DNA from: Alphaproteobacteria bacterium
GTDB taxonomy: Bacteria; Pseudomonadota; Alphaproteobacteria; SP197
Direction: 5' to 3'
Assembly (NCBI GenBank): GCA_964291265.2
Contig: OZ219747.1
Coordinates: 4,192,001 to 4,256,000, forward strand
Length of the DNA: 64,000 bases
Made by a program: the position numbers and the translations under genes. Below are positions 45,410-64,000 of the stretch, piece after piece. Numbering within the stretch: the stretch's first letter is position 1; every line of letters starts with the position of its first letter. Below the pieces are notes generated by a model. That model did not search any database. It was not told the DNA's origin and worked only from the letters and a program-made list of their open reading frames with translations.

Positions 45410-45477
45410 TGTTGATGGCTGCATAGAACGGCGGGATTTCGGCGATTTGCCGCGCTTTGTCAGGGTCGTGTTTCTTC

Positions 45478-45569
45478 CCTGTTGTCAGGTCCTATTGTCA
45501 CGTCCTGTTGTCGTGGTTTGAGTGTTCGGCTGGTTGTCTCCCCGAGCGCCGCCGTCTTTTCCTATTGTC
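45478..45569 (+). repeat. CCT(G/A)TTGTC repeats in the element left end
   Basis: Copies at 45478, 45491, 45504 (13-bp period) and 45561. Confidence 0.75.
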
Positions 45570-45695
45570 GTTTTGGTCCGGTTCGGGTTCCGTCGACCTC
45601 TGCTTCGGTCTTGGTGACGGTTGCCGGGAGGGTTCCGGTTCCGAGGCACTCGCGGGATTGTTTGTCTTCCCTGTGGGCGGGTCGCGTTGTCCGGT

Positions 45696-45863
45696 CCCGG
45701 GGCGGCGTCTTTGCCGCCGCCCCGGGTGGATGCTAGATCGGCATCAAGAGAAAGAGCGATGCGATGCCGGGCGGAGTTGTGACGCCCCCCGGCGCAGCAC
45801 CCGGACGAGCCGGTCACGGGGGACCGAACTCCCGTGTATTGTCGAGCCATTTTGCGTCCGGGT
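45696..45863 (+). ncRNA. Candidate structured leader RNA upstream of orf1 (also 51055-51222 minus and 61453-61620 plus)
   Basis: Stems 45696-45707/45715-45726, 45766-45771/45788-45793, 45799-45807/45855-45863 and 45815-45822/45829-45836. Confidence 0.4.
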
Positions 45864-46188
45864 CCACCCCCGCTCTCGAGACGGACGGTGTGCACGACGG
45901 GACGACTGTTCAACTGCAAGCGGTGTCAGCGGCAGGTTGTTCTCTGCCGGTCGTGTGACCGGGGGCATGTGTATTGCTCCAAGGAGTGCAGGGAATCGTC
46001 CCGGATCGAGCGGCGCCGCGCGTCGCGTCGTCGCTACCAGAGCACGCTGAAGGGCCGTGAGACGGGCCGTCACCGCCAGCGGCGTTATCGGCTCCGCAAG
46101 GCGGAGGAGGCGCGTGCGTTGAAGGCCAGGGCGGCGATGGTTGCCGAGATCATGGGCACGCAGACGTCTGCTGTGGTGCTGCTTGGCG
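45834..46188 (+). pseudogene. orf1 of copy A, split by copy B (remainder 51514-51689)
   Basis: Near-identical to intact orf1 up to VVLLG, resumes at DVPAVSG after copy B. Confidence 0.85.
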
Positions 46189-47132
46189 TGTCGGCGGCGA
46201 TTTAGAACGGCGGGATATTGGCGGAGAACCGCTCTTTTGGGCGCTGATCGTGTGAGTGGGTGACCACGACAGGAGAACGTGCGGCATTGGACGAAGGTCC
46301 GCCCGGTCTTTGTTTTCTGCCTATTGTTGGATCCCATTGGTCTTGCATTGACGTTGACGATGTCGTTCCGGTCGGCGTTTTCTGGCGTTCGGCGTTTGTG
46401 GAACGTGATGTGGGAGGGGAGCTTCAGGCTTTTGCGCGTGGTTTCGTTCTGGCGTTCTCCGTCCTCGTCGTGGTTCGTCGGGCGGGACGATCTCGAGGCT
46501 GGAGAGCTGACGGTTTCTGTTGCGCTGGGCGAAGAGGCTGCGTGCGTTGCGGTTGCGGCGGCGCAGGGTGCGGCAGGCGTCGAGTGTTTTCGGGCGGATG
46601 CTGCGACCTGTGAGCCAGTCCGGCGGCGGATCGGGCGTTGCTGCGGCTCAGCGGCTGCGGCAGTCTCGTGATGTGGTGTCGTTTGGACGGCCCGGGGGTT
46701 TCCCGGGGAGGCTGAGCGGCGCGTCGGGGTGAGACGTTCTCATTCCTGGATGGTAACGCGTGACCGCGTTCAAGGGTCTTGCGAGATTACGTGTCCCTTC
46801 CGTAGCCGCGTGGCGGTTCGATGTCCTCGAGAGCCTCGATGTCGGCATCGGCGACGCTCTGCAGGCGTTCTCCGTAAGGCGTGTCACGGAGGGTTTCGGG
46901 GATGCTGTCGAGGCGGTCACGCCATTCGTCCTGCAGGGTGCGGCAGGCGTCGAGTGTTTTCGGGCGGATGCTGCGACCTGTAAGCCAGTCCGGCCAGCGG
47001 CTGCGGCAGTCTCGTGATGCGGTGTCGTTTGGACGGCCCGGGAGTTTCCCGGGGAGGCTGAGCGGCGCGTCGGGGTGAGACGTTCTCATTCCTGGATGGT
47101 AACGCGTGACCGCGTTCAAGGGTCTTGCGGGA

Positions 47133-47423
47133 TCACGTATCCCTTCCGTAGCCGCGTGGCGGTTCGATGTCCTCGAGGGCCTCGATGTCGGCATCGGCGA
47201 CGCTCTGCAGGCGTTCTCCGTAAGGCGTGTCACGGAGGCTTTCGGGGATGCTGTCGAGGTGGTCACGCCATTCGTCCTGCAGGGCGCGCAGTTCGGCCAC
47301 GGCGTCGTTCCAGCGTTGCGGTCGCGAGCGCCGGTCACGGTGCTTTGGGGTGTGGACGGGAGGGATGCCGGCCTTGCGCCGTTCCCGGTATCGCCGCTGC
47401 TTTTCGGCGGGCGTGAGGGGCAT
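47133..47423 (-). CDS. orf5, 96-aa hypothetical protein (copy B, intact)
   Basis: AAGGAG RBS; MPLTPAEKQRRYRERR...QRWNDAVAEL...IEPPRGYGRDT. Confidence 0.75.
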   Translation of the reverse strand: MPLTPAEKQRRYRERRKAGIPPVHTPKHRDRRSRPQRWNDAVAELRALQDEWRDHLDSIPESLRDTPYGERLQSVADADIEALEDIEPPRGYGRDT

Positions 47424-47449
47424 GAGTGGTCTCCTTGTGACGGACGTGG

Positions 47450-48343
47450 TCATGATCTCGCTTGTGGTTCTTTGGTCCTGGCGTTGACGACGTCGTTCCA
47501 GTCGGCGTTTTCCGGCGGTCTGCGTCTGTGGAACGAGACGTGGGAGGGGAGCTTCATCTTTTTGCGCAGGGTTTCGGCCTGTCGCTCTCCGGCCTCGTCG
47601 TGGTCCTGGGCGAGGACGATGGTCCTGACGTTGGGCAGGCTGCTTGCGGCGAGGCTGATCTGTTCGTGCTGTCTTCGCGAGGGTGCCCCGGCGGTGGAGA
47701 GGAAGGCGTGGCTGGGGGGACATTGGTCGATCTGGGCCAGGCTGAGGGCGTCGACGGCGCTTTCGGTGATGACGAGGGCCTCGAGGTCCGCGGCGGTTCC
47801 GGCGCGGACGGCGAACAGGCTTCGGGTTCCACCGGTGGCGAAGCGTTTCGGTCCGTCGGGGGGACCGATCTCGAAGCCGGTGAGCTTTCGCTTCCTGTTG
47901 CGATGGGCGAAGAGGACGCGTCCGTTGTGGTCGCGGCGGACCAGGGGGCGGCAGGTGTCGAGGGTCTCCGGGAGGATGCCGCGCCCGGTGAGCCAGTCCG
48001 GGGCCGCATCGGGCGTTGCCGCGGCCCAGAGGCTGCGGAAGTCGCGTGGCGCGGTGTCGGGTGCTGTGAAGCGGGTGCAGATGTCGGCGAAGGCCAGTCC
48101 GCGGTTGAGCATGAAGTCGATGACGGTTCCGTTGTCTTCATCGTTCTGGGTGTTGAAGTAGACCCAGTGTCCGTTGTTGAGGCACTTCGTGACGAGCTTC
48201 GGCAGGCCGGGTGCGCACAGGACGGGGTTGGCGCGTGTCGAGGCCTGTTCGTCGCGGACGTATCCCCAGTCGGCGGCGATGCGTTCGAACGGCATGCGCT
48301 TGACGGCGTCGAAGTCGACGCGGCGGGGTTTATCGGGTTTCAC
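47450..48343 (-). CDS. orf4, Toprim-domain primase-like protein (DUF3991/Toprim-like), copy B
   Basis: LVITESAVDALS and VLAQDHDEAG Toprim motifs, WL..RGI, DNGTVIDF, terminal DWND. Confidence 0.82.
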   Translation of the reverse strand: MKPDKPRRVDFDAVKRMPFERIAADWGYVRDEQASTRANPVLCAPGLPKLVTKCLNNGHWVYFNTQNDEDNGTVIDFMLNRGLAFADICTRFTAPDTAPRDFRSLWAAATPDAAPDWLTGRGILPETLDTCRPLVRRDHNGRVLFAHRNRKRKLTGFEIGPPDGPKRFATGGTRSLFAVRAGTAADLEALVITESAVDALSLAQIDQCPPSHAFLSTAGAPSRRQHEQISLAASSLPNVRTIVLAQDHDEAGERQAETLRKKMKLPSHVSFHRRRPPENADWNDVVNARTKEPQARS

Positions 48344-49031
48344 GCCTGAGCCGCCAGGAGTCGCTGTCGATGGAGATGAGGGTTGCGTCGTGCATGAGCC
48401 GGTCGACGGTGCCGGCGATGCCGGAGGCGCTGGGGAAGACGCGGTCCCACTGGGCGAAGGCGAGGCTTGTCGTGACCATGGTCGAGCGGCGCTGATAGCG
48501 CCGCGAGACGATGGCGTAGAGGATGTCGGCATGGTGGCTTTCGAGGGTCACGTAGCCGATTTCGTCGAGGATGAGCAGGCGGGGCCTGGCGAGGATCGCG
48601 AGGCGGCGGCGCAGCTCGCTGCGCGAGACGGTCTCGGCGAGTGCCTCGAGCAGTTCCGGCGCCTTCTCGAAGCGGACGGTGTGGCCGTGCAGCAGGGCCT
48701 GGTGAGCCACGTTGGCGGCGATCATGGTCTTTCCGGTGCCCTGCCCGCCGACGAGCACGGCGTTGTCCGCACGGTCGACGAAGCCGAGGCCGAGGAGCGC
48801 TTCGACATGAGCCCGGCTGATGTCGCGCGGCCATGTCCAGTCGAAGTCCGCCAGGGGCTTGAAGGCGGGCAGCCGCGCCGCGGCGCGGCGGCGCTCGTGG
48901 CTGCGGGCCCTGCGGGCCTGTTCCTCGCCGCTGACCACCTCCTCGATCCATGCGGTCCCGGCGACCTCGTCCCAGCGTTCGACGAGCCCGTGGAGGCCGA
49001 GCGCCCGGGCACGCTCCCTGAGCTCGCTCAT
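48330..49031 (-). CDS. istB: IS21 helper ATPase (copy B)
   Basis: LADFDW, Walker A GGQGTGKT, Walker B LLILDEIGY, VDRLMH. Confidence 0.93.
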   Translation of the reverse strand: MSELRERARALGLHGLVERWDEVAGTAWIEEVVSGEEQARRARSHERRRAAARLPAFKPLADFDWTWPRDISRAHVEALLGLGFVDRADNAVLVGGQGTGKTMIAANVAHQALLHGHTVRFEKAPELLEALAETVSRSELRRRLAILARPRLLILDEIGYVTLESHHADILYAIVSRRYQRRSTMVTTSLAFAQWDRVFPSASGIAGTVDRLMHDATLISIDSDSWRLRRETR

Positions 49032-50521
49032 GTCTTGTTCCTGGCGCTGGCTTCGGGCCTGTCGTAGGCGTCGAGAGCGGTCCCCCGCGGCGTCGTGCCA
49101 CGGCCGCCGCGGCCGTCGTCGGCGATGCTGAGGGGCGGCAGGCCCTGCTCCCGGCGGCGCTCCTCGATGATGACGCGCACGGTTTCGGGGTGGCACGAGC
49201 CGCGCTCCAGCGCCGTGGCGACAGCCCGGTCGAGAGCGTCGGCGCCGTGCGCGTTGAGAAGCGTCTCCAGCATCCGGGCGCAGGAGGCCACGTTGCGCCC
49301 GTTGGTCCCGGCGCGCGCCAGCATCTCCTCGGCCCGCGGCACGGTGCGCAGGACCCGGTCGCGGACGCTCATGGAGCGGGCCCGCCGCTTGCCCGCGGCG
49401 ATCGCCCTGGCATGCTCCGGATCGGTGACGGCCTGCTTCCTGTTGTAGGAGCGTCGGTGGCGCGCGACCTCGTCGGCGCCGTCGAGGATGCGAACCTCGT
49501 CGCGGTCGGCGACCAGCGTCAGCAGGGCCTTGGAGAAGCTACCCGGAACGCTGTAGTCGTTGGTGTCGAAGCGGGCGTGGCAGGTCTTGTCGATGCGCAC
49601 CGGGCGGACCTCGTGATGCGGGAAGGGATCGGCGGGAAGGACGATCAGGTGCTCCCTCTCCCGGGCGAAGGCGTCCCGCACCAGGAGACTGTCGTCGTCC
49701 GGCCAGGGCCGCTCCGCGGCGGCGCCGAAGCACCACTCCCGAACTGCGGCGTTGAGCTCGCCGAGCGGGACCGTGATGTCGCGCCCGGCGAAGAACCCGG
49801 TGCGCGCGAAGCGCACACGGCGTTCCACGCGGCCCTTCTCCTGCGGGCTCCTGGGCCAGGCGGCGCTCGGTTCGAAGGCATAGTGGGCCGCGAGGCCGAG
49901 CAGCATCGGATGATAGGTGACCGCCTTGCCGCGGCGCGTCACCACGGCACTCTTCAGGTTGTCGTACAGAAGCCTCCGCGGCACACCCCCGAATGCCGCG
50001 AAAGCCTCGACATGGCCTTGCAGGAAGCTGGCCATCCGCGCGTCGTGGAACAGGCTCAGGACAGTCTGGCGCGAGTAGCTGAGGGTGACGAGAAGCCCCA
50101 TGAGCCTGCGCTCCGCCCGGCCGATGCGGACCTTCCCGAACTCGGCCCAGTCAACCTGCGCCTGCTCGCCCGGAAGGAAGCTCAGCCGCAGCGACGGCTC
50201 GGGCCTCTTCACCGGCCTCAGCCCGAGGCGGCGCAGGTCGTGACGGAAGTGATCCTCGCCGCCGCGGTAGCCCAGAGCCACGACCTGTCGCCAGAGCGTG
50301 CTGGCCGGAAGGTCCGGCGACGCCTCAAGACGCTCCCCGAGGAAGGCAACGAAGGGGTCGATGAGCTTGGCCCGCGGCCGCCGCTCCTGCCCCGACGCCT
50401 TGAGCGCCCGCGTCACCGTGCCGTGGTGCACGCCGAGATGCCGGGCAATCGTCCCCACAGCCCAGCCCTCGGCCCGCGACAGCCGCACGATCGTCGCCCG
50501 CGTGTCCTCGTCGATCGCCAT
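49028..50521 (-). CDS. istA: IS21 transposase (copy B)
   Basis: N-terminal HTH, PGEQAQVDW, LYDNLKSAV, PQEKGRVER, FDTNDYSVP. Confidence 0.95.
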   Translation of the reverse strand: MAIDEDTRATIVRLSRAEGWAVGTIARHLGVHHGTVTRALKASGQERRPRAKLIDPFVAFLGERLEASPDLPASTLWRQVVALGYRGGEDHFRHDLRRLGLRPVKRPEPSLRLSFLPGEQAQVDWAEFGKVRIGRAERRLMGLLVTLSYSRQTVLSLFHDARMASFLQGHVEAFAAFGGVPRRLLYDNLKSAVVTRRGKAVTYHPMLLGLAAHYAFEPSAAWPRSPQEKGRVERRVRFARTGFFAGRDITVPLGELNAAVREWCFGAAAERPWPDDDSLLVRDAFAREREHLIVLPADPFPHHEVRPVRIDKTCHARFDTNDYSVPGSFSKALLTLVADRDEVRILDGADEVARHRRSYNRKQAVTDPEHARAIAAGKRRARSMSVRDRVLRTVPRAEEMLARAGTNGRNVASCARMLETLLNAHGADALDRAVATALERGSCHPETVRVIIEERRREQGLPPLSIADDGRGGRGTTPRGTALDAYDRPEASARNKT

Positions 50522-50553
50522 GAACTCCCTCCCTTTGGTTCCTCAACGCCGCA

Positions 50554-51084
50554 TCACGGGTCCCTCAGCACCACATGCGTCACGACCCGTCCGCATCTGG
50601 CGCACCGAAGCGGCGATTCGCGCCGCTCTTGCGCCTTCACAACCGCAGGTAGGGAGGTCGGCAGCAGTCGGGAAGGGTGGTCCGTAACGATTTCTTCAGA
50701 ACCGGCGTCTCCAGACACCGCCGGAACGTCGCCAAGCAGCACCACAGCAGACGTCTGCGTGCCCATGATCTCGGCAACCATCGCCGCCCTGGCCTTCAAC
50801 GCACGCGCCTCCTCCGCCTTGCGGAGCCGGTAACGCCGCTGGCGGTGACGGCCCGTCTCACGGCCCTTCAGCGTGCTCTGGTAGCGACGACGCGACGCGC
50901 GGCGCCGCTCGATCCGGGACCGCTCCCTGCACTCCTTGGAGCAATACACATGTCCCCGGTCACACGACCGGCAGAGAACAACCTGCCGCTGACACCGCCT
51001 GCAGTTGAACAGTCGTCCTGTCGTGCACACCGTCCGTCTCGAGAGCGGGGGTGGACCCGGACGCAAAATGGCTCGACAATACAC
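50554..51084 (-). CDS. orf1, Cys-rich putative Zn-binding basic protein (copy B); true start possibly GTG 51030
   Basis: CRRC-x6-CRSC-x6-CSKEC, Arg-rich helix, C-terminal CARC. Confidence 0.75.
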   Translation of the reverse strand: MYCRAILRPGPPPLSRRTVCTTGRLFNCRRCQRQVVLCRSCDRGHVYCSKECRERSRIERRRASRRRYQSTLKGRETGRHRQRRYRLRKAEEARALKARAAMVAEIMGTQTSAVVLLGDVPAVSGDAGSEEIVTDHPSRLLPTSLPAVVKAQERRESPLRCARCGRVVTHVVLRDP

Positions 51085-51721
51085 GGGAGTTCGGTCCCCC
51101 GTGACCGGCTCGTCCGGGTGCTGCGCCGGGGGGCGTCACAACTCCGCCCGGCATCGCATCGCTCTTTCTCTTGATGCCGATCTAGCATCCACCCGGGGCG
51201 GCGGCAAAGACGCCGCCCCGGGACCGGACAACGCGACCCGCCCACAGGGAAGACAAACAATCCCGCGAGTGCCTCGGAACCGGAACCCTCCCGGCAACCG
51301 TCACCAAGACCGAAGCAGAGGTCGACGGAACCCGAACCGGACCAAAACGACAATAGGAAAAGACGGCGGCGCTCGGGGAGACAACCAGCCGAACACTCAA
51401 ACCACGACAACAGGACGTGACAATAGGACCTGACAACAGGGAAGAAACACGACCCTGACAAAGCGCGGCAAATCGCCGAAATCCCGCCGTTCTATGCAGC
51501 CATCAACATGGCGACGTTCCGGCGGTGTCTGGAGACGCCGGTTCTGAAGAAATCGTTACGGACCACCCTTCCCGACTGCTGCCGACCTCCCTACCTGCGG
51601 TTGTGAAGGCGCGAGAGCGGCGCGAATCGCCGCTTCGGTGCGCCCGGTGCGGACGGGTCGTGACGCATGTGGTGCTGAGGGACCTGTGATGCGGCGTTGA
51701 GGAACCAAAGGGAGGGAGTTC

Positions 51722-53215
51722 ATGGCGATCGACGAGGACACGCGGGCGACGATCGTGCGGCTGTCGCGGGCCGAGGGCTGGGCTGTGGGGACGATTGCCC
51801 GGCATCTCGGCGTGCACCACGGCACGGTGACGCGGGCGCTCAAGGCGTCGGGGCAGGAGCGGCGGCCGCGGGCCAAGCTCATCGACCCCTTCGTTGCCTT
51901 CCTCGGGGAGCGTCTTGAGGCGTCGCCGGACCTTCCGGCCAGCACGCTCTGGCGACAGGTCGTGGCTCTGGGCTACCGCGGCGGCGAGGATCACTTCCGT
52001 CACGACCTGCGCCGCCTCGGGCTGAGGCCGGTGAAGAGGCCCGAGCCGTCGCTGCGGCTGAGCTTCCTTCCGGGCGAGCAGGCGCAGGTTGACTGGGCCG
52101 AGTTCGGGAAGGTCCGCATTGGCCGGGCGGAGCGCAGGCTCATGGGGCTTCTCGTCACCCTCAGCTACTCGCGCCAGACTGTCCTGAGCCTGTTCCACGA
52201 CGCGCGGATGGCCAGCTTCCTGCAAGGCCATGTCGAGGCTTTCGCGGCATTCGGGGGTGTGCCGCGGAGGCTTCTGTACGACAACCTGAAGAGTGCCGTG
52301 GTGACGCGCCGCGGCAAGGCGGTCACCTATCATCCGATGCTGCTCGGCCTCGCGGCCCACTATGCCTTCGAACCGAGCGCCGCCTGGCCCAGGAGCCCGC
52401 AGGAGAAGGGCCGCGTGGAACGCCGTGTGCGCTTCGCGCGCACCGGGTTCTTCGCCGGGCGCGACATCACGGTCCCGCTCGGCGAGCTCAACGCCGCAGT
52501 TCGGGAGTGGTGCTTCGGCGCCGCCGCGGAGCGGCCCTGGCCGGACGACGACAGTCTCCTGGTGCGGGACGCCTTCGCCCGGGAGAGGGAGCACCTGATC
52601 GTCCTTCCCGCCGATCCCTTCCCGCATCACGAGGTCCGCCCGGTGCGCATCGACAAGACCTGCCACGCCCGCTTCGACACCAACGACTACAGCGTTCCGG
52701 GTAGCTTCTCCAAGGCCCTGCTGACGCTGGTCGCCGACCGCGACGAGGTTCGCATCCTCGACGGCGCCGACGAGGTCGCGCGCCACCGACGCTCCTACGA
52801 CAGGAAGCAGGCCGTCACCGATCCGGAGCATGCCAGGGCGATCGCCGCGGGCAAGCGGCGGGCCCGCTCCATGAGCGTCCGCGACCGGGTCCTGCGCACC
52901 GTGCCGCGGGCCGAGGAGATGCTGGCGCGCGCCGGGACCAACGGGCGCAACGTGGCCTCCTGCGCCCGGATGCTGGAGACGCTTCTCAACGCGCACGGCG
53001 CCGACGCTCTCGACCGGGCTGTCGCCACGGCGCTGGAGCGCGGCTCGTGCCACCCCGAAACCGTGCGCGTCATCATCGAGGAGCGCCGCCGGGAGCAGGG
53101 CCTGCCGCCCCTCAGCATCGCCGACGACGGCCGCGGCGGCCGTGGCACGACGCCGCGGGGGACCGCTCTCGACGCCTACGACAGGCCCGAAGCCAGCGCC
53201 AGGAACAAGACATGA
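51722..53215 (+). CDS. istA: IS21 transposase (copy A)
   Basis: Same motifs as copy B; GGAGGGAG RBS. Confidence 0.95.
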   Translation: MAIDEDTRATIVRLSRAEGWAVGTIARHLGVHHGTVTRALKASGQERRPRAKLIDPFVAFLGERLEASPDLPASTLWRQVVALGYRGGEDHFRHDLRRLGLRPVKRPEPSLRLSFLPGEQAQVDWAEFGKVRIGRAERRLMGLLVTLSYSRQTVLSLFHDARMASFLQGHVEAFAAFGGVPRRLLYDNLKSAVVTRRGKAVTYHPMLLGLAAHYAFEPSAAWPRSPQEKGRVERRVRFARTGFFAGRDITVPLGELNAAVREWCFGAAAERPWPDDDSLLVRDAFAREREHLIVLPADPFPHHEVRPVRIDKTCHARFDTNDYSVPGSFSKALLTLVADRDEVRILDGADEVARHRRSYDRKQAVTDPEHARAIAAGKRRARSMSVRDRVLRTVPRAEEMLARAGTNGRNVASCARMLETLLNAHGADALDRAVATALERGSCHPETVRVIIEERRREQGLPPLSIADDGRGGRGTTPRGTALDAYDRPEASARNKT

Positions 53216-53913
53216 GCGAGCTCAGGGAGCGTGCCCGGGCGCTCGGCCTCCACGGGCTCGTCGAACGCTGGGACGAGGTCGCCGGGACCGCATGGATCGA
53301 GGAGGTGGTCAGCGGCGAGGAACAGGCCCGCAGGGCCCGCAGCCACGAGCGCCGCCGCGCCGCGGCGCGGCTGCCCGCCTTCAAGCCCCTGGCGGACTTC
53401 GACTGGACATGGCCGCGCGACATCAGCCGGGCTCATGTCGAAGCGCTCCTCGGCCTCGGCTTCGTCGACCGTGCGGACAACGCCGTGCTCGTCGGCGGGC
53501 AGGGCACCGGAAAGACCATGATCGCCGCCAACGTGGCTCACCAGGCCCTGCTGCACGGCCACACCGTCCGCTTCGAGAAGGCGCCGGAACTGCTCGAGGC
53601 ACTCGCCGAGACCGTCTCGCGCAGCGAGCTGCGCCGCCGCCTCGCGATCCTCGCCAGGCCCCGCCTGCTCGTCCTCGACGAAATCGGCTACGTGACCCTC
53701 GAAAGCCACCATGCCGACATCCTCTACGCCATCGTCTCGCGGCGCTATCAGCGCCGCTCGACCATGGTCACGACAAGCCTCGCCTTCGCCCAGTGGGACC
53801 GCGTCTTCCCCAGCGCCTCCGGCATCGCCGGCACCGTCGACCGGCTCATGCACGACGCAACCCTCATCTCCATCGACAGCGACTCCTGGCGGCTCAGGCG
53901 TGAAACCCGATAA
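53212..53913 (+). CDS. istB: IS21 helper ATPase (copy A)
   Basis: ATGA overlap with istA; Walker A and B motifs. Confidence 0.93.
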   Translation: MSELRERARALGLHGLVERWDEVAGTAWIEEVVSGEEQARRARSHERRRAAARLPAFKPLADFDWTWPRDISRAHVEALLGLGFVDRADNAVLVGGQGTGKTMIAANVAHQALLHGHTVRFEKAPELLEALAETVSRSELRRRLAILARPRLLVLDEIGYVTLESHHADILYAIVSRRYQRRSTMVTTSLAFAQWDRVFPSASGIAGTVDRLMHDATLISIDSDSWRLRRETR

Positions 53914-54793
53914 ACCCCGCCGCGTCGACTTCGACGCCGTCAAGCGCATGCCGTTCGAACGCATCGCCGCCGACTGGGGATACGTCCGCGACGAACAGGC
54001 CTCGACACGCGCCAACCCCGTCCTGTGCGCACCCGGCCTGCCGAAGCTCGTCACGAAGTGCCTCAACAACGGACACTGGGTCTACTTCAACACCCAGAAC
54101 GATGAAGACAACGGAACCGTCATCGACTTCATGCTCAACCGCGGACTGGCCTTCGCCGACATCTGCACCCGCTTCGCAGCACCCGACGCCGCGCCACGCG
54201 ACTTCCGCAGCCTCTGGGCCGCGGCAACGCCCGATGCGGCCCCGGACTGGCTCACCGGGCGCGGCATCCTCCCGGAGACCCTCGACACCTGCCGCCCCCT
54301 GGTCCGCCGCGACCACAACGGACGCGTCCTCTTCGCCCATCGCAACAGGAAGCGAAAGCTCACCGGCTTCGAGATCGGTCCCCCCGACGGACCGAAACGC
54401 TTCGCCACCGGTGGAACCCGAAGCCTGTTCGCCGTCCGCGCCGGAACCGCCGCGGACCTCGAGGCCCTCGTCATCACCGAAAGCGCCGTCGACGCCCTCA
54501 GCCTGGCCCAGATCGACCAATGTCCCCCCAGCCACGCCTTCCTCTCCACCGCCGGGGCACCCTCGCGAAGACAGCACGAACAGATCAGCCTCGCCGCAAG
54601 CAGCCTGCCCAACGTCAGGACCATCGTCCTCGCCCAGGACCACGACGAGGCCGGAGAGCGACAGGCCGAAACCCTGCGCAAAAAGATGAAGCTCCCCTCC
54701 CACGTCTCGTTCCACAGACGCAGACCGCCGGAAAACGCCGACTGGAACGACGTCGTCAACGCCAGGACCAAAGAACCACAAGCGAGATCATGA
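53900..54793 (+). CDS. orf4, Toprim-domain primase-like protein (copy A)
   Basis: GTG overlapping the istB end; TESAVDALS and QDHDEAG motifs. Confidence 0.82.
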   Translation: MKPDKPRRVDFDAVKRMPFERIAADWGYVRDEQASTRANPVLCAPGLPKLVTKCLNNGHWVYFNTQNDEDNGTVIDFMLNRGLAFADICTRFAAPDAAPRDFRSLWAAATPDAAPDWLTGRGILPETLDTCRPLVRRDHNGRVLFAHRNRKRKLTGFEIGPPDGPKRFATGGTRSLFAVRAGTAADLEALVITESAVDALSLAQIDQCPPSHAFLSTAGAPSRRQHEQISLAASSLPNVRTIVLAQDHDEAGERQAETLRKKMKLPSHVSFHRRRPPENADWNDVVNARTKEPQARS

Positions 54794-54819
54794 CCACGTC
54801 CGTCACAAGGAGACCACTC

Positions 54820-55110
54820 ATGCCCCTCACGCCCGCCGAAAAGCAGCGGTGATACCGGGAACGGCGCAAGGCCGGCATCCCTCCCGTCCACACCCCAAAG
54901 CACCGTGACCGGCGCTCGCGACCGCAACGCTGGAACGACGCCGTGGCCGAACTGCGCTCCCTGCAGGACGAATGGCGTGACCACCTCGACAGCATCCCCG
55001 AAAGCCTCCGTGACACGCCTTACGGAGAACGCCTGCAGAGCGTCGCCGATGCCGACATCGAGGCCCTCGAGGACATCGAACCGCCACGCGGCTACGGAAG
55101 GGATACGTGA
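54820..55110 (+). pseudogene. orf5 of copy A with premature stop
   Basis: CGA in copy B is TGA here (54850-54852). Confidence 0.75.
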
Positions 55111-55930
55111 TCCCGCAAGACCCTTGAACGCGGTCACGCGTTACCATCCAGGAATGAGAACGTCTCACCCCGACGCGCCGCTCAGCCTCCCCGGGAAACA
55201 CCCGGGCCGTCCAAACGACACCGCATCACGAGACTGCCGCAGCCTCTGAGCCGCAGCGACGCCCGATCCGCCGCCGGACTGGCTCACAGGTCGCAGCATC
55301 CGCCCGAAAACACTCGACGCCTGCCGCACCCTGCAGGACGAATGGCGTGACCGCCTCGACAGCATCCCCGAAACCCTCCGTGACACGCCTTACGGAGAAC
55401 GCCTGCAGAGCGTCGCCGATGCCGACATCGAGGCTCTCGAGGACATCGAACCGCCACGCGGCTACGGAAGGGACACGTAATCTCGCAAGACCCTTGAACG
55501 CGGTCACGCGTTACCATCCAGGAATGAGAACGTCTCACCCCGACGCGCCGCTCAGCCTCCCCGGGAAACCCCCGGGCCGTCCAAACGACACCACATCACG
55601 AGACTGCCGCAGCCGCTGAGCCGCAGCAACGCCCGATCCGCCGCCGGACTGGCTCACAGGTCGCAGCATCCGCCCGAAAACACTCGACGCCTGCCGCACC
55701 CTGCGCCGCCGCAACCGCAACGCACGCAGCCTCTTCGCCCAGCGCAACAGAAACCGTCAGCTCTCCAGCCTCGAGATCGTCCCGCCCGACGAACCACGAC
55801 GAGGACGGAGAACGCCAGAACGAAACCACGCGCAAAAGCCTGAAGCTCCCCTCCCACATCACGTTCCACAAACGCCGAACGCCAGAAAACGCCGACCGGA
55901 ACGACATCGTCAACGTCAATGCAAGACCAA
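54961..55930 (+). repeat. 370-bp tandem duplication plus degenerate primase fragments inside the element right arm
   Basis: ctgcaggacgaatggcgtgacc at 54961 and 55331; deleted primase paralog at about 55600-55920; mirrored in copy B at about 46340-47283. Confidence 0.85.
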
Positions 55931-56078
55931 TGGGATCCAACAATAGGCAGAAAACAAAGACCGGGCGGACCTTCGTCCAATGCCGCACGTTCTCCTGTCG
56001 TGGTCACCCACTCACACGATCAGCGCCCAAAAGAGCGGTTCTCCGCCAATATCCCGCCGTTCTAAATCGCCGCCGACA

Positions 56079-57529: not shown

Positions 57530-59900
57530 CTTTCAACCAGACACTGTTGAATCCATCTTTTTCAGCATATCGAGTTCCTGCAGTTTCCGCATATTTCGGT
57601 GATGTTCGACGAAGGTGAGGAGGATTTCGTATCCCTGCCAGAGTTTCTCAGTCCCCGGCAGGGGTTGACGTTTTCTGGGAATGAAGCCCGCCAGGCGTGC
57701 GACGTCGACGGCGAAGGCTGCGATGGTCGGTTCGGGATCGGGAGGTCCACGCGGCGTGCGCTGTCGGCTGACCTTATAGATGTTCAGGACCGTGATCTCG
57801 TCGCGGTGGACGATGTGGCTTGCCGGGGTGTCTGGTGCCGAGCGTGCGAGGCGCTCGACGGTCATGACGCGGCATGCGGTGATGGCGTCGAAGGCCAGAC
57901 ACTTCCTCAGATCGTCGGCCTGGTTGAGGCGCCGGTCCTTGATCCGGGTGCCGACCTTCAGGGCCTTGAAATACTCTTCGATCCACCATCGCCTCTCGTA
58001 GAAGGAGACGGTCTTGAGGGCATCGTCTGCGGTGACGTCGCCTTCGGTGGTGAGCAGCATCCAGTCGAGAGGATCGCGGCCTGGCGGTGGAGCGGGTTCC
58101 GTGACCCGCACGGCCATCATGGAGAGCGGCGGCGTTGCCTGAGGCTTCTTGTCCGGCGGAGCCAGGTCGACCCTTGCCGCACGGACTTCGAGGCGTACGC
58201 CCTTGCGCTCCTTGCGACGACGCGGCCCTCCGCAGGCTGCGATGTCGATCTGCTTCGTTGCGATGCACGGCTCGTCCGCCATGTAGTCCCAAAGGTCCCG
58301 GCAGGCGCCCGTTGCGGTGACCACGCGGCGCCGTGTCGAGCGCCTGACGCGCACCAGCAGACCGGCCTCGTGCTCCGTGCTCCGGGCCAGCAGGTCCCAG
58401 ATGTCGCCTTCACGGTCACAGATCACCAACACCCTTGTCGAAGGACAGGCAGCGGCAAGTTCCACGGCCTTGTCGTACCCGTCGAGCCAGCGCCGGCTCT
58501 CCTTGTCGTCTGGCTCGTCCTTCTTCTGATCCGGCTTGAGACGGAAGTCGGCGTCGAGATGGAACAGGCCGAGGGATGAGCCGCCTTCGCTGAAGGCAAC
58601 TCCGGCATGGGCCGCCATGCCAAGGGCGCCCGAGCCGCCGCCGCCGATGTCAACAAGACCCTTGGTCGCCTCCAAGCCGTTGTCATTCAAGAACGTCGTG
58701 TCCTGGATGGCAAGAATCAGGCGCTGCGAACGGCAGCGTTCCACCATCGCTTCCTGGTGCCCCTCAAGGATATGCTCCATCGTCACCCTCGGATTCGACA
58801 ACAGGCGGTAGGCCGCCTTCTGCTCCGCCTCGCCGGGGAAGATCACCGGCAGGATCGCGCCGGGACGATCGTTCCACGCCCGGCCCATGGTGACAAGGCG
58901 CTCGCGGATGCGCACGTCACTGTGGCTGCTGCGGGCGTACTCCCTCATCGCCCAGTCGGTCCTGTCATCACCGACAAGGGGCGCCGCCTGGCCCATGACA
59001 CGCTCAGGCTCCCGGCACAGCACGGCGCGCCAGTCAGACGACAGGGGCTTCATCCATACGGACCGCTGCACGCCCGGGCCGGTGGCCCCGGGAGGTCGAC
59101 CCGAGGTCATCTCCTCACAGCGCTCCCAGCCCGCCGCCCGGTAGCTCACGCCGCTGTGCTCGGGACCCACATACGTGTACGCCAGAACCGGCTTCACCCC
59201 GTACTTCTCGTGCCAGTCCGTAGCCAGACGCCGGCAGGCACAGGCCAGGGCATGGGAGGCCAACTCCTTCACATCCACCGATGGAAGAATCAGGAAGCGA
59301 TCATTGTTGACGATCTCGCCGAGGTGGGCGACACGGGCTCCCTGGGACCAGCCGATGAAGTCGTCGCGCGCCTTCTGGTGCCAACTCGCCGCACCAAACA
59401 CCAGGCCGCCGAGGCGACCGTGGCGCGACGAGGTGATCCAGTAGCTCACCCGGGCTCCGGGTGCGCACGCCTCGCCTTCGGGATGCCAGGTCGCCATCAT
59501 CGAACGGGCCAGGCGCTTGTCCTCGCCCTCGCCCACAGGCTCCAAGGTGACCTCTCCAAGGTCCTCCAGAGAACAGGCGAGGAGCTTGTCGGGATAGTCC
59601 CGCTCAAGGGTGTCGGCGCCGGTGCCGAAGGCATCAGGCCTTGGTGCAGGAAGGGCGATGTCGAGCGACGCAGCAAGGTCAGGCAGGGCCGCACGCGCCG
59701 AGGCAAGACACAGCTCGCCCTTCGCGTTGCGCCACTCCTCGCGCTCGCACAATCCCCGCGCCAGAGACGAGCGTGTGCTGCCCTCGGCAGCCGACGCCGC
59801 CTTCAGCCAGTCAACCGTCGTCGCAGATGTCGAAAGCCGATCCTCATGGGCCACTATGTAAGGCCTCATGAACATCGAGTCAAGCCTGTCCCGTTGAAAG
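57530..59900 (-). mobile_element. IS4-family (IS50/Tn5-like) element, 2371 bp
   Basis: IRs CTTTCAACCAGACA / CTTTCAACGGGACA; 9-bp TSD GGGCGCGAG at 57521-57529 and 59901-59909. Confidence 0.93.
57533..59875 (-). CDS. DUF4338 (DruA-like) domain fused to an IS4/IS50-like DDE transposase, about 780 aa
   Basis: ARDDFIGW, VNNDRFLILP, LASHAL, G.SYRAAGW; then KAAYRLL, IQDTT, DREGD, YERRWWIEEYFKALK, LAGF..PG...WQG. Confidence 0.88.
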   Translation of the reverse strand: MFMRPYIVAHEDRLSTSATTVDWLKAASAAEGSTRSSLARGLCEREEWRNAKGELCLASARAALPDLAASLDIALPAPRPDAFGTGADTLERDYPDKLLACSLEDLGEVTLEPVGEGEDKRLARSMMATWHPEGEACAPGARVSYWITSSRHGRLGGLVFGAASWHQKARDDFIGWSQGARVAHLGEIVNNDRFLILPSVDVKELASHALACACRRLATDWHEKYGVKPVLAYTYVGPEHSGVSYRAAGWERCEEMTSGRPPGATGPGVQRSVWMKPLSSDWRAVLCREPERVMGQAAPLVGDDRTDWAMREYARSSHSDVRIRERLVTMGRAWNDRPGAILPVIFPGEAEQKAAYRLLSNPRVTMEHILEGHQEAMVERCRSQRLILAIQDTTFLNDNGLEATKGLVDIGGGGSGALGMAAHAGVAFSEGGSSLGLFHLDADFRLKPDQKKDEPDDKESRRWLDGYDKAVELAAACPSTRVLVICDREGDIWDLLARSTEHEAGLLVRVRRSTRRRVVTATGACRDLWDYMADEPCIATKQIDIAACGGPRRRKERKGVRLEVRAARVDLAPPDKKPQATPPLSMMAVRVTEPAPPPGRDPLDWMLLTTEGDVTADDALKTVSFYERRWWIEEYFKALKVGTRIKDRRLNQADDLRKCLAFDAITACRVMTVERLARSAPDTPASHIVHRDEITVLNIYKVSRQRTPRGPPDPEPTIAAFAVDVARLAGFIPRKRQPLPGTEKLWQGYEILLTFVEHHRNMRKLQELDMLKKMDSTVSG

Positions 59901-61590
59901 GGGCGCGAGCGGCGTCGTGCCGGTTGGCTTCGGGCATATAGTCGAAATGTCCGCCGCAGCGCACGATGGCGATGGCGGCGTTTGTCAGGCAGGAGAGGTT
60001 GCGTGGCAGATGGCGCACATGGACCCTGCAGCGGTCCTCGTCGTAGGTGAAGTCGCGTACGTAGTGGAGTCGATTTTCGATGACCCAGTGGTCGCGCACG
60101 AGGGCCAGAAGCATCTCGGGTCCGGCGCGTTCGGGAGCGAGCGAGGTGAGGCACCAGGTGGTCTCGACACTGCGTTCTTTGGTCTTGCAGATCTCGCGTT
60201 CGCGCTCGATGCGGATGGCTTGGTGGCGACCGTGGAGAGCGGCGTAGCCGTCCCACTCAGCGCCGGAGATGTCGACCACGGCACAGCGGCGGCGCTCGAT
60301 GCGTCCGTGCCCCTTGTCGAGTGTCTCGAACGAAGCCGCGCCCTTGAAGTCGATGGCCTTGAGGTCGTCGAGCATGGTCTCCTGGTTATCCTTGATCGCC
60401 GTGATGACATAATCGGCGCGGCGCTCGAGAAGCCGTTGCGCGGTCTCGTGCTGAGCGTGCATCGCGTTCAGGGTGACGATGCGGCCCGTGACGTCGATGC
60501 TGCTGGCGAGGTCCCGCACGGCGGGGATCTCGTTGCTCTTCGCGTCGACCTCGACCTGGCCGAGGACCATGCCGGTTCCGTGCTCGACCGCTGCGACCAT
60601 CATCCGCCGCCCGTTTTTGGTCTGCCTGGAGGCGCCGCGGATGTCCTTGCCGTCCATGGCGAGCGGTGTGTCTGCACCGGCCTGCTGGGCCGTCCACAGG
60701 CCGATGGCGTGGTCCAGGGTCTCGGGCGGCAGGTTGGCGAGGATGCTGTGGAAGGTTGTGGACGTGGGCGCCGTGTAGCGCTTCTTCGACGGGCTGTAGA
60801 ACGCACCCACCGCCGCCAGCTGTTCCTGGGTGAGCAGGGCGGCGAACTGAGCGAATGCGCTCACGCCGCGGTAGCCGGCGAGCCGGGCTGCGACGGCGAT
60901 CGCGAGAATGGTTCTCAGCGGATAGCGCTTGCCCCGGGGCTTGCGGCACTCGGGCACCTCGCCCAGGCAGGCGAACAGACTGCGCAGCCCGGACGCGGCC
61001 ATCGGTCCGGCTTGGTCGTGCTGCTCCGCGTTCCAGCTCTCCGGGATCGCGTCCCGGCTCAGCGCCTCGGCGGCGTCGTCGGTCAGTTCGTACATGAAGA
61101 TCTCCTTGGGCTGGCCGTGGTGACGGAAGCGTGCGGCGCCGCCGGGCTTGCGACCGAAGCCTGAGCTGTTGATGGCTGCATAGAACGGCGGGATTTCGGC
61201 GATTTGCCGCGCTTTGTCAGGGTCGTGTTTCTTCCCTGTTGTCAGGTCCTATTGTCACGTCCTGTTGTCGTGGTTTGAGTGTTCGGCTGGTTGTCTCCCC
61301 GAGCGCCGCCGTCTTTTCCTATTGTCGTTTTGGTCCGGTTCGGGTTCCGTCGACCTCTGCTTCGGTCTTGGTGACGGTTGCCGGGAGGGTTCCGGTTCCG
61401 AGGCACTCGCGGGATTGTTTGTCTTCCCTGTGGGCGGGTCGCGTTGTCCGGTCCCGGGGCGGCGTCTTTGCCGCCGCCCCGGGTGGATGCTAGATCGGCA
61501 TCAAGAGAAAGAGCGATGCGATGCCGGGCGGAGTTGTGACGCCCCCCGGCGCAGCACCCGGACGAGCCGGTCACGGGGGACCGAACTCCC

Positions 61591-62121
61591 GTGTATTGTC
61601 GAGCCATTTTGCGTCCGGGTCCACCCCCGCTCTCGAGACGGACGGTGTGCACGACAGGACGACTGTTCAACTGCAGGCGGTGCCAACAGCAGGTTGTTCT
61701 CTGCCGGTCGTGTGACCGGGGGCATGTGTATTGCTCCGATGAGTGCAGGGAGCGGTCCCGGATCGAGCGGCGCCGCGCGTCGCGTCGTCGCTACCAGAGC
61801 ACGCTGAGGGGCCGTGAGACGGGCCGTCACCGCCAGCGGCGTTACCGGCTCCGCAAGGCGGAGGAGGCGCGTGCGTTGAAGGCCAGGGCGGCGATGCTTG
61901 CCGAGATCATGGACACGCAGACGTCTGCTGTGGTGCTGCTTGGCGACGTTCCGGCGGTGTCTGGAGACGCCGGTTCCGAAGAAATCGTTACGGACCACCC
62001 TTCCCGACTGCTGCCGACCTCCCTACCTGCGGTTGTGAAGGCGCAAGAGCGACGCGAATCGCCGCTTCGGTGCGCCCGTTGCGGACGGGTCGTGACGCAT
62101 GTGGTGCTGAGGGACCCGTGA
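61591..62121 (+). CDS. orf1, Cys-rich putative Zn-binding protein (copy C)
   Basis: Intact paralog of 50554-51084. Confidence 0.75.
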   Translation: MYCRAILRPGPPPLSRRTVCTTGRLFNCRRCQQQVVLCRSCDRGHVYCSDECRERSRIERRRASRRRYQSTLRGRETGRHRQRRYRLRKAEEARALKARAAMLAEIMDTQTSAVVLLGDVPAVSGDAGSEEIVTDHPSRLLPTSLPAVVKAQERRESPLRCARCGRVVTHVVLRDP

Positions 62122-62153
62122 TGCGGCGTTGAGGAACCAAAGGGAGGGAGTTC

Positions 62154-63647
62154 ATGGCGATCGACGAGGACACGCGGGCGACGATCGTGCGGCTGTCGCG
62201 GGCCGAGGGCTGGGCTGTGGGGACGATTGCCCGGCATCTCGGCGTGCACCACGGCACGGTGACGCGGGCGCTCAAGGCGTCGGGGCAGGAGCGGCGGCCG
62301 CGGGCCAAGCTCATCGACCCCTTCGTTGCCTTCCTCGGGGAGCGTCTTGAGGCGTCGCCGGACCTTCCGGCCAGCACGCTCTGGCGACAGGTCGTGGCCC
62401 TGGGCTACCGCGGCGGCGAGGATCACTTCCGTCACGACCTGCGCCGCCTTGGGCTGAGGCCGGTGAAGAGGCCCGAGCCGTCGCTGCGGCTGAGCTTCCT
62501 TCCGGGCGAGCAGGCGCAGGTTGACTGGGCCGAGTTCGGGAAGGTCCGCATTGGCCGGGCGGAGCGCAGGCTCATGGGGCTTCTCGTCACCCTCAGCTAC
62601 TCGCGCCAGACTGTCCTGAGCCTGTTCCACGACGCGCGGATGGCCAGCTTCCTGCAAGGCCATGTCGAGGCTTTCGCGGCATTCGGGGGTGTGCCGCGGA
62701 GGCTTCTGTACGACAACCTGAAGAGTGCCGTGGTGACGCGCCGCGGCAAGGCGGTCACCTATCATCCGATGCTGCTCGGCCTTGCGGCCCACTATGCCTT
62801 CGAACCGAGCGCCGCCTGGCCCAGGAGCCCGCAGGAGAAGGGCCGCGTGGAACGCCGTGTGCGCTTCGCGCGCACCGGGTTCTTCGCCGGGCGCGACATC
62901 ACGGTCCCGCTCGGCGAGCTCAACGCCGCGGTTCGGGAGTGGTGCTTCGGCGCCGCCGCGGAGCGGCCCTGGCCGGACGACGACAGTCTCCTGGTGCGGG
63001 ACGCCTTCGCCCGGGAGAGGGAGCACCTGATCGTCCTTCCCGCCGATCCCTTCCCGCATCACGAGGTCCGCCCGGTGCGCATCGACAAGACCTGCCACGC
63101 CCGCTTCGACACCAACGACTACAGCGTTCCGGGTAGCTTCTCCAAGGCCCTGCTGACGCTGGTCGCCGACCGCGACGAGGTTCGCATCCTCGACGGCGCC
63201 GACGAGGTCGCGCGCCACCGACGCTCCTACGACAGGAAGCAGGCCGTCACCGATCCGGAGCATGCCAGGGCGATCGCCGCGGGCAAGCGGCGGGCCCGCT
63301 CCATGAGCGTCCGCGACCGGGTCCTGCGCACCGTGCCGCGGGCCGAGGAGATGCTGGCGCGCGCCGGGACCAACGGGCGCAACGTGGCCTCCTGCGCCCG
63401 GATGCTGGAGACGCTTCTCAACGCGCACGGCGCCGACGCTCTCGACCGGGCTGTCGCCACGGCCCTGGAGCGCGGCTCGTGCCACCCCGAAACCGTGCGC
63501 GTCATCATCGAGGAGCGCCGCCGGGAGCAGGGCCTGCCGCCCCTCAGCATCGCCGACGACGGCCGCGGCGGCCGTGGCACGACGCCGCGGGGGACCGCTC
63601 TCGACGCCTACGACAGGCCCGAAGCCAGCGCCAGGAACAAGACATGA
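62154..63647 (+). CDS. istA: IS21 transposase (copy C)
   Basis: 497 aa; translation matches copy A. Confidence 0.95.
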   Translation: MAIDEDTRATIVRLSRAEGWAVGTIARHLGVHHGTVTRALKASGQERRPRAKLIDPFVAFLGERLEASPDLPASTLWRQVVALGYRGGEDHFRHDLRRLGLRPVKRPEPSLRLSFLPGEQAQVDWAEFGKVRIGRAERRLMGLLVTLSYSRQTVLSLFHDARMASFLQGHVEAFAAFGGVPRRLLYDNLKSAVVTRRGKAVTYHPMLLGLAAHYAFEPSAAWPRSPQEKGRVERRVRFARTGFFAGRDITVPLGELNAAVREWCFGAAAERPWPDDDSLLVRDAFAREREHLIVLPADPFPHHEVRPVRIDKTCHARFDTNDYSVPGSFSKALLTLVADRDEVRILDGADEVARHRRSYDRKQAVTDPEHARAIAAGKRRARSMSVRDRVLRTVPRAEEMLARAGTNGRNVASCARMLETLLNAHGADALDRAVATALERGSCHPETVRVIIEERRREQGLPPLSIADDGRGGRGTTPRGTALDAYDRPEASARNKT

Positions 63648-64000
63648 GCAACCTCAGGGAGCGTGCCCGGGCGCTCGGCCTCCACGGGCTCGTCGAACGC
63701 TGGGACGAGGTCGCCGGGACCGCATGGATCGAGGAGGTGGTCAGCGGCGAGGAACAGGCCCGCAGGGCCCGCAGCCACGAGCGCCGCCGCGCCGCGGCGC
63801 GGCTGCCCGCCTTCAAGCCCCTGGCGGACTTCGACTGGACATGGCCGCGCGACATCAGCCGGGCTCATGTCGAAGCGCTCCTCGGCCTCGGCTTCGTCGA
63901 CCGTGCGGACAACGCCGTGCTCGTCGGCGGGCAGGGCACCGGAAAGACCATGATCGCCGCCAACGTGGCGCACCAGGCCCTGCTGCACGGCCACACCGTC
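63644..64000 (+). CDS. istB: IS21 helper ATPase (copy C), partial
   Basis: MSNLRERAR...GGQGTGKT; truncated by the window edge. Confidence 0.9.
   Translation, partial: MSNLRERARALGLHGLVERWDEVAGTAWIEEVVSGEEQARRARSHERRRAAARLPAFKPLADFDWTWPRDISRAHVEALLGLGFVDRADNAVLVGGQGTGKTMIAANVAHQALLHGHTV

Follow-up and report, generated by a model that had tools for sequence, protein, structure and literature searches.

The window analyzed here, a 64,000-nucleotide stretch of contig OZ219747.1 from an alphaproteobacterium, contains an active insertion sequence (IS), an IS21-family variant whose fourth gene, orf4, is conserved and primase-like, an arrangement that is apparently undescribed. The encoded protein may derive from a conjugation primase that the element captured and now uses to prime the second strand during copy-out transposition, a proposal we hold to be about evenly balanced between right and wrong. 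The unit spans positions 46189-51508 on the minus strand (5,320 bp), with both ends starting TGT (i.e. TGT...ACA), 26 of the 35 outer positions identical between its inverted repeats, and the 5-bp target-site duplication (TSD) TGGCG on both sides, the extent, ends and 5-bp TSD being as originally predicted. The predicted gene order orf1-istA-istB-orf4-orf5 was likewise correct, with overlaps of 4 nt between istA and istB and of 14 nt between the istB stop and orf4, which starts at GTG 48343 (Table 1). The IS21 hallmarks are present, namely the IstA triad, istB directly 3′ of istA, TGT...ACA ends and a short TSD; the triad (D124/D187/E233) is invariant in 12 sequences, IstA matches Pfam rve and Mu-transpos_C_2, and its best plasmid matches carry the annotation istA. 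Because it has four core genes plus orf5 rather than the two open reading frames (ORFs) of prototypical IS21, the element is a variant and not a prototypical member.

Copies and activity of the element

The host genome (4.83 Mb in 2 contigs, C1 and C2) was scanned for the element, which occupies ~4% of it: 49 left ends and 42 right ends give 36 paired copies, 30 of them with a TSD (5 bp in 24, 6 bp in 4, 7 bp in 2) and 6 with none. Setting aside 4 pairs that are composite or interrupted leaves 32 uninterrupted copies, in all of which orf1, istA and istB are open, with orf4 open in 31 and orf5 in 28; since the frames stay open across these copies, the ORF set is not a product of chance. The three near-identical copies originally noted are indeed in the window but not side by side, and they belong to a genome-wide set of 36. 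The described copy sits in opposite orientation within orf1 of the second copy, and TGGCG is therefore a fragment of orf1. Self-insertion is frequent, with 5 of the 36 copies inside another copy versus at most 1.5 expected from the 4% genome share (Poisson p 0.017), an excess that could reflect better survival of harmless insertions; 2 of the 36 insertions lie inside a second transposon. No effective target immunity is visible in the 36 insertions, no replichore-strand bias was found (15 of 35 copies oriented on the leading strand), and 24 insertion sites yielded no target motif or consensus. No circular or tandem junction of the right and left inverted repeats (IRR-IRL) is present in the assembly, whose contigs cannot reveal rare molecules, and all assembled copies are integrated, most with a TSD. 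The element is highly active and behaves as an ordinary TSD-making IS.

Lone ends that share just the outer 26-35 bp occur at C2:3640823-3646150, 1502052, 2787657 and 3520867 and at C1:251362 and 366894, and at C2:3642932 a left end breaks off after 34 bp and gives way to a second one. These are possibly non-autonomous derivatives or a related element.

Orf4 resembles DnaG-type primases

Orf4 matches Pfam Toprim_2 (E 5e-13) and, weakly, DUF3991, and the TESAVD and DHD motifs are both present and intact, as first reported. A profile of 30 close homologs matches the T7 gp4 primase (E 6e-7), with E194, D198, D247 and D249 aligned to T7 E157, D161, D207 and D209 (numbering counted off the alignment), which we take to have catalytic roles; D281 falls outside the aligned stretch and presumably corresponds to T7 D237. 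The predicted structure (predicted local distance difference test score 72.7) includes a well-modelled N-terminal β-rich domain, and a Foldseek search with it returned Twinkle, Aquifex primase, DnaG and T7 gp4 as top matches, at whole-model TM-scores of just 0.3-0.4. No variation was seen among the 30 homologs at residues E194, D247, D249, W106, R121, R167 and R174. Judged from model and alignment, the fold and acidic residues would fit a primase. The original prediction had proposed such profile and structure searches for three proteins; they gave a primase-like fold for Orf4 and no Pfam family for Orf1 or Orf5.

orf4 is under purifying selection. By the Nei-Gojobori method (pairs not independent, broken genes below 80% coverage dropped), median dN/dS, the ratio of non-synonymous to synonymous substitution rates, was 0.46 for orf4 (78 pairs), compared with 0.41 for istA (66), 0.37 for istB (105) and 0.59 for orf1 (91). 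All 78 orf4 pairs fell below 1 (range 0.19-0.76; closest pairs 0.19 and 0.22), the second codon position is the most conserved, and the motifs are invariant at 60-79% identity. Orf4 distances track those of IstA (rho 0.80) and IstB (0.82), versus 0.91 between IstA and IstB (13 elements), so that the co-divergence for which a check had been suggested is seen.

A Toprim-bearing IS21 clade

A profile search with Orf4 recovered 61 loci in 18 Paracoccaceae/Alphaproteobacteria assemblies. istB adjoins orf4 at 58 of these loci, in 16 of the 18 assemblies, and the 3 loci that lack istB are Toprim fragments; both istA and istB accompany orf4 at 55 loci and all three upstream genes at 52. Ends could be defined in 8 multi-copy assemblies, giving elements of 4,045-4,721 bp with TGT...ACA ends, short duplications and orf1-istA-istB-orf4 inside, the smallest members being the 4,045-bp, four-gene ones. 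Starting instead from IstB in 33 genomes of the host's family, we found 8 clade matches outside this genome, all 8 followed by orf4 (one matched over residues 4-102 only), and one 50% relative without orf4. No orf4 loss was found within the clade, at IstA divergence down to 49%. Taken together, these sequence comparisons indicate that orf4 belongs to the core of the element family and is coupled to its other genes, rather than being recent cargo, and they uphold the original view of orf4 as integral to the element. That prediction had also named three outcomes that would speak for passive cargo, two of which are not borne out: the istAB-orf4 linkage is not unique to this genome and orf4 is neither neutral nor independent of its neighbours in divergence.

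One relative, on OZ241893.1, has 20 or more copies and also shows self-nested insertions (loci L025, L026, L052).

The fourth slot in related elements

The nearest plasmid relatives of IstA (42-47% identity; 5 of the top 30 matches were opened) belong to 3.4-kb elements with no Toprim gene, in which orf1-istA-istB is followed by a 61-73-aa ORF overlapping the istB stop; the ends were located in 4 of the 5, the fifth being interrupted. These four-gene sisters (NC_006823, NZ_AP023183, NC_016108), annotated merely as istA, istB and hypothetical, resemble the described element in orf1, istA, istB (44-50%), ends and leader hairpin, and differ in length and in having, in the fourth slot, a small protein that often ends like a single-stranded DNA-binding protein (SSB). 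The small ORF is present on 56 plasmids. Among 7 C-termini examined, 3 end in PF, 2 more in acidic residues plus F, and 2 in neither; one ends DFNDEIPF, compared with DFDDGIPF in the host SSB. The tails of SSB serve to recruit priming proteins. The Toprim clade forms a single branch (99/99) in the IstB tree, sister to the primase-less elements, a relationship that the IstA tree does not resolve.

A small ORF that shares 65% identity with its counterpart in an IS21 sister also lies 3′ of DDE and ExeA-type genes on pMOL28, in what we infer to be Tn6049. This transposon of Cupriavidus metallidurans CH34 is described as 3.5 kb long, with 12 copies and a gspA ATPase (PMC2864759). It resembles the described element in its Cys-rich ORF, DDE transposase, AAA ATPase and fourth gene, and has relatives with Toprim and/or AAA_25 in that place; it differs in a transposase that is not alignable to IstA by BLASTP, an ExeA-type ATPase and the lack of a leader-hairpin match. 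Elsewhere, Tn6049-like elements carry AAA_25 alone (G008, G027) or AAA_25 with Toprim (G026), and locus L060 combines DDE, ExeA and Toprim. A small protein 3′ of the ATPase was seen in both IS21 sisters and Tn6049-like elements (plasmid loci L068-L072, L200, L201), several with an SSB-like acidic tail. The second transposon of the present genome is itself Tn6049-like (5.16 kb; 6 long copies including C2:47069-52229; 5-bp duplications) and encodes a Cys-rich ORF, a 505-aa DDE transposase, an ExeA-type ATPase, AAA_25 and a DUF3991/Toprim protein with intact motifs, the last 30% identical to Orf4.

Metagenomes (18 of 64 parts scanned) were searched with a wider Orf4 profile. Among the best 80 of 313 confirmed loci, 5 have Toprim 3′ of istB, in two distant IS21 lineages (IstA 26-28%) and in both cases within the inverted repeats. 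The istAB pairs concerned (L160, L165, L166, L172 versus L162) are unrelated and have different inverted repeats, their only common DNA being a Toprim gene with 75% identity, which suggests that the Toprim module was swapped between elements. The Toprims of the L160 and L162 lineages nest among those of type IV secretion systems (T4SS) and integrative and conjugative elements (ICEs); the approximately unbiased test does not reject their sharing one origin with Orf4 (p 0.097).

Origin of Orf4

The wider profile matches 1,961 clusters. Neighbours were surveyed for the same best 80 of 313 loci (135 of 214 ORFs scanned; relaxase fusions assigned partly by eye), and 41 of the 80 are plasmid- or ICE-like, with a relaxase fusion, T4SS, Rep, KfrA, TopB or integrase, the rest being short or uninformative. 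A relaxase domain occurs in 21 of 27 long profile matches scanned, and a transposase or IstB in none. Given this relaxase, plasmid and ICE context, the usual job of the family is probably to prime single-stranded DNA from rolling-circle transfer, and its sequence makes a conjugative or mobilisable element the likely source from which Orf4 was acquired. With relaxase-linked DUF3991/Toprim proteins, T7 gp4 and DnaG it shares the domain pair, acidic motifs, 28-38% identity and the T7/DnaG fold; it differs from them in standing alone in an IS, in having lost one conserved basic residue, and in lacking a zinc-ligand motif and a helicase or relaxase partner.

A conserved leader hairpin

Upstream of orf1 by ~90-140 nt lies a leader element comprising a 13-bp stem 1 with a variable loop of 18-23 nt (14 in one element) and a weaker second stem, shared by 22 elements (16 from the Toprim clade, 6 primase-less). 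Across this set, 86% of stem 1 cells are paired, versus 26-44% in slid controls, a score favoured by the derivation of the structure from the consensus of the same elements; two-sided changes occur at 6 of the 13 pairs, and the region is not frame-conserved. On the coding strand, A.C mismatches in stem 1 (34 cells in 9 columns, 17 of them in one column) outnumber G.T (6 cells in 4 columns), so the hairpin would fold better on the non-coding (+) strand, where it is followed by a pyrimidine tract. About equally, it may be a single-strand priming site or an antisense RNA.

Orf4 in copy-out transposition

IS21 has been proposed to move by copy-out/paste-in (PMC11208146; 10.1101/2023.06.07.543989), in which synthesis of one strand starts from a free 3′-OH and replication leads to a double-stranded circle (10.1101/2023.06.07.543989, PMC7780238); conversion of the strand-bridged intermediate to that circle is usually left to ‘host replication machinery’ (PMC7780238). 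The other strand would need new priming, and a primase from single-strand transfer systems would fit this gap, a reading further favoured by the other occupants of the fourth slot, which point the same way. Specifically, IstA would join the element ends on one strand, a host polymerase would restore the donor site from the free 3′-OH, and Orf4 would prime the displaced single-stranded circle, perhaps where its non-coding strand folds into the leader hairpin, so that the circle becomes double-stranded before integration by IstA and IstB. In the primase-less sisters, the small SSB-tail-like protein would recruit host priming proteins instead, and Orf4 would raise efficiency or host independence without being strictly required. 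More broadly, and in our estimate somewhat short of an even chance, DDE/AAA+ transposons of several families could share a four-gene plan with a swappable ‘replication-start’ module in the last slot (primase, helicase or SSB-tail mimic) and a single-strand origin in the leader, the described element then being a self-priming IS that starts its second strand independently of the host primosome.

Several observations weigh against such a role. In vitro, integration needs just IstA and IstB (PMC10122671). Sister elements that have this orf1-istA-istB set but no primase are widespread, and AAA_25-only Tn6049-like relatives reach 6 copies in G008, so the primase is dispensable in kin; the small ORFs of those sisters end in acidic residues plus F, PF included, in just 5 of 7 cases. 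The hairpin is shared with the primase-less sisters, is imperfect in the described copy, where its fold is not significant alone (z -1.7), and would serve another purpose if it is an antisense RNA. In Orf4, the model is poor at residues 159-185, D198 is replaced by N in 16 of 30 homologs, and position 160, aligned to T7 R124, is G, A or S in 30 of 30 clade members, whereas 33 of 37 rows of the wider DUF3991/Toprim family have K or R there. E158 and G160 stand, in a region where the model is unreliable, at the positions of T7 K122 and R124, which we take to form a basic ridge for nucleotide binding. Finally, no zinc-ligand (conserved Cys) motif was found in the N-terminal domain of Orf4, as in the wider DUF3991 family, and by this sequence criterion Orf4 resembles DnaG without being a canonical DnaG. 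The lost basic residue, D198N and the missing zinc ligands would suit a non-priming accessory that binds single-stranded or forked DNA and shields the intermediate or brings in replication proteins of the host, as would the interchange of the fourth slot with a small non-enzymatic protein and an AAA_25 protein. We consider such an accessory unlikely, if far from negligible, given the seven residues invariant in all 30 homologs, the retention of all motifs, basic residue included, in the other Toprim-bearing lineages, and the lack of a targeting signature in strand orientation or insertion sites.

That Orf4 is selected cargo working outside transposition, for instance for co-resident plasmids or ICEs or for the host, seems improbable to us. 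The family is at home on plasmids and ICEs, where the L160 and L162 Toprims also nest, the element gains passengers such as orf5, and Toprim is present or absent among Tn6049-like relatives of 71-73% identity. However, the gene keeps a constant slot right after the ATPase, with overlapping or nearly abutting frames, in at least 5 DDE/AAA lineages; it is never seen lost in the clade; the element has no relaxase or oriT-type gene; and a trans-acting host benefit needs no 36 copies. Still less can be said for a transposon-replicon hybrid whose circle replicates on its own, as the original prediction had envisaged and as we judge very improbable: the primase-like gene, the structured leader and the helicase-primase-like pair AAA_25 and Toprim in the Tn6049-like element of the same genome would be in keeping with it, but Rep initiator, helicase and polymerase genes are absent from the element (Pfam, all six ORFs), minimal members make do with 4,045 bp and four genes, and the assembled copies are those of an integrated, TSD-making IS. 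Neutral baggage from a recent burst is hardly credible and, from the sequence comparisons, already largely refuted; a stop in orf4 of 1 of 32 copies and the within-genome changes (2 synonymous, 4 non-synonymous, too few for a selection test) would be compatible with it, whereas dN/dS below 1 in every pair, the conserved second codon position and the invariant motifs of diverged homologs are not.

Relation to known systems

IS21 members are described as having two ORFs (PMC10122671) and as being without a target selector (PMC10293859). The described element shares with IS21 and IS5376 the DDE protein IstA, the AAA+ protein IstB, TG...CA ends, a mostly 5-bp TSD and no target consensus, and differs in its four core genes, length of 4.0-5.3 kb, structured 0.45-kb leader and self-insertion (5 of 36). 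A search of full-text literature found no paper that describes a Toprim or primase gene in an IS21 element; as the search did not reach subscription journals, ISfinder or TnPedia, an entry may exist there. The nearest description is IEE (insertion sequence excision enhancer), likewise an enzyme of primase type, for which a role in the replication step of copy-out IS transposition has been proposed (10.1101/2023.06.07.543989). IEE differs in being an AEP PrimPol-helicase rather than a DnaG-type Toprim protein and, in the excerpt of the same source, a separate gene that serves several IS families and promotes excision.

The conversion of the strand-bridged intermediate to a double-stranded circle is the least resolved copy-out step, and gene swaps make it directly testable, given a primase-bearing element, sisters whose corresponding slot encodes an SSB-like tail, and a hairpin that is strand-specific. 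If the proposed role of Orf4 is true, insertion sequences have repeatedly domesticated a conjugation enzyme, which might also explain how the element came to occupy ~4% of its host genome.

Other features of the element and the window

orf1 most likely starts at GTG 51030, since a start codon lies three codons upstream of the TGRLF motif in 18 of 22 compared elements; its presence in the primase-less sisters indicates, by sequence, that it is older than the primase gene. orf5, originally listed as one of two accessory ORFs, is not a core gene but an optional passenger: it is disrupted or missing in 4 of the 32 uninterrupted copies and occurs in just 1 of the 18 other assemblies, which accounts for all 25 loci. 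A repeated element at C2:3295623-3297985, which also has a 684-aa ORF that we read as recombinase-like, carries a relative of Orf5 (64%) at its 3′ end.

Table 1. Features of the IS21-family element and its surroundings, in window positions
Feature	Position	Strand	Description
TSD TGGCG, left copy	46184..46188	+	right copy 51509-51513
IRR	46189..46223	-	ends ACA
3′ tail	46224..47132	-	~0.9 kb, largely duplicated decayed pieces of orf5 (91%) and orf4 (81-83%)
orf5	47133..47423	-	96 aa; large unnamed family, 1,097 homologs, no Pfam family
orf4	47450..48343	-	297-aa DUF3991/Toprim; predicted DnaG/T7-primase fold; E194, D198, D247, D249, D281 present; no zinc-ligand motif
istB	48330..49031	-	233-aa AAA+ helper ATPase; PF01695 E 2e-50
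istA	49028..50521	-	497-aa DDE transposase; D124, D187, E233
orf1	50554..51030	-	158 aa, Cys-rich, Arg-rich; no Pfam family; present too in primase-less IS21 sisters
Two-hairpin leader element	51091..51160	+	stem 1 51117-51160, stem 2 51091-51108; conserved in 22 elements
IRL	51474..51508	-	starts TGT; 26/35 identical to IRR
Second element copy	45410..56078 (45410-46188 + 51509-56078)	+	split at 46188/51509 by described copy; 99.1-99.2% identical
Third element copy	61167..64000	+	extends beyond window edge, to window position 66495

Across the 21-kb stretch 45410-66495 (C2:4237410-4258495), the outer ends of the second and third copies share the 5-bp duplication CGTGC, unlike their inner flanks, which differ; the stretch is either a composite that moved as one or the product of a cointegrate-type event. 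Between these copies, 57533-61095 contains a 907-aa ORF that we take to be a fusion of a DruA/DUF4338-type domain with an IS4-type transposase; another ORF, presumably an ISAs1-like transposase, overlaps it, and both occur repeated in sequencing runs. Self-comparison of the window also revealed short tandem-like repeats at 5101-5546 and 6164-6465, with periods of ~54 and 108 bp.

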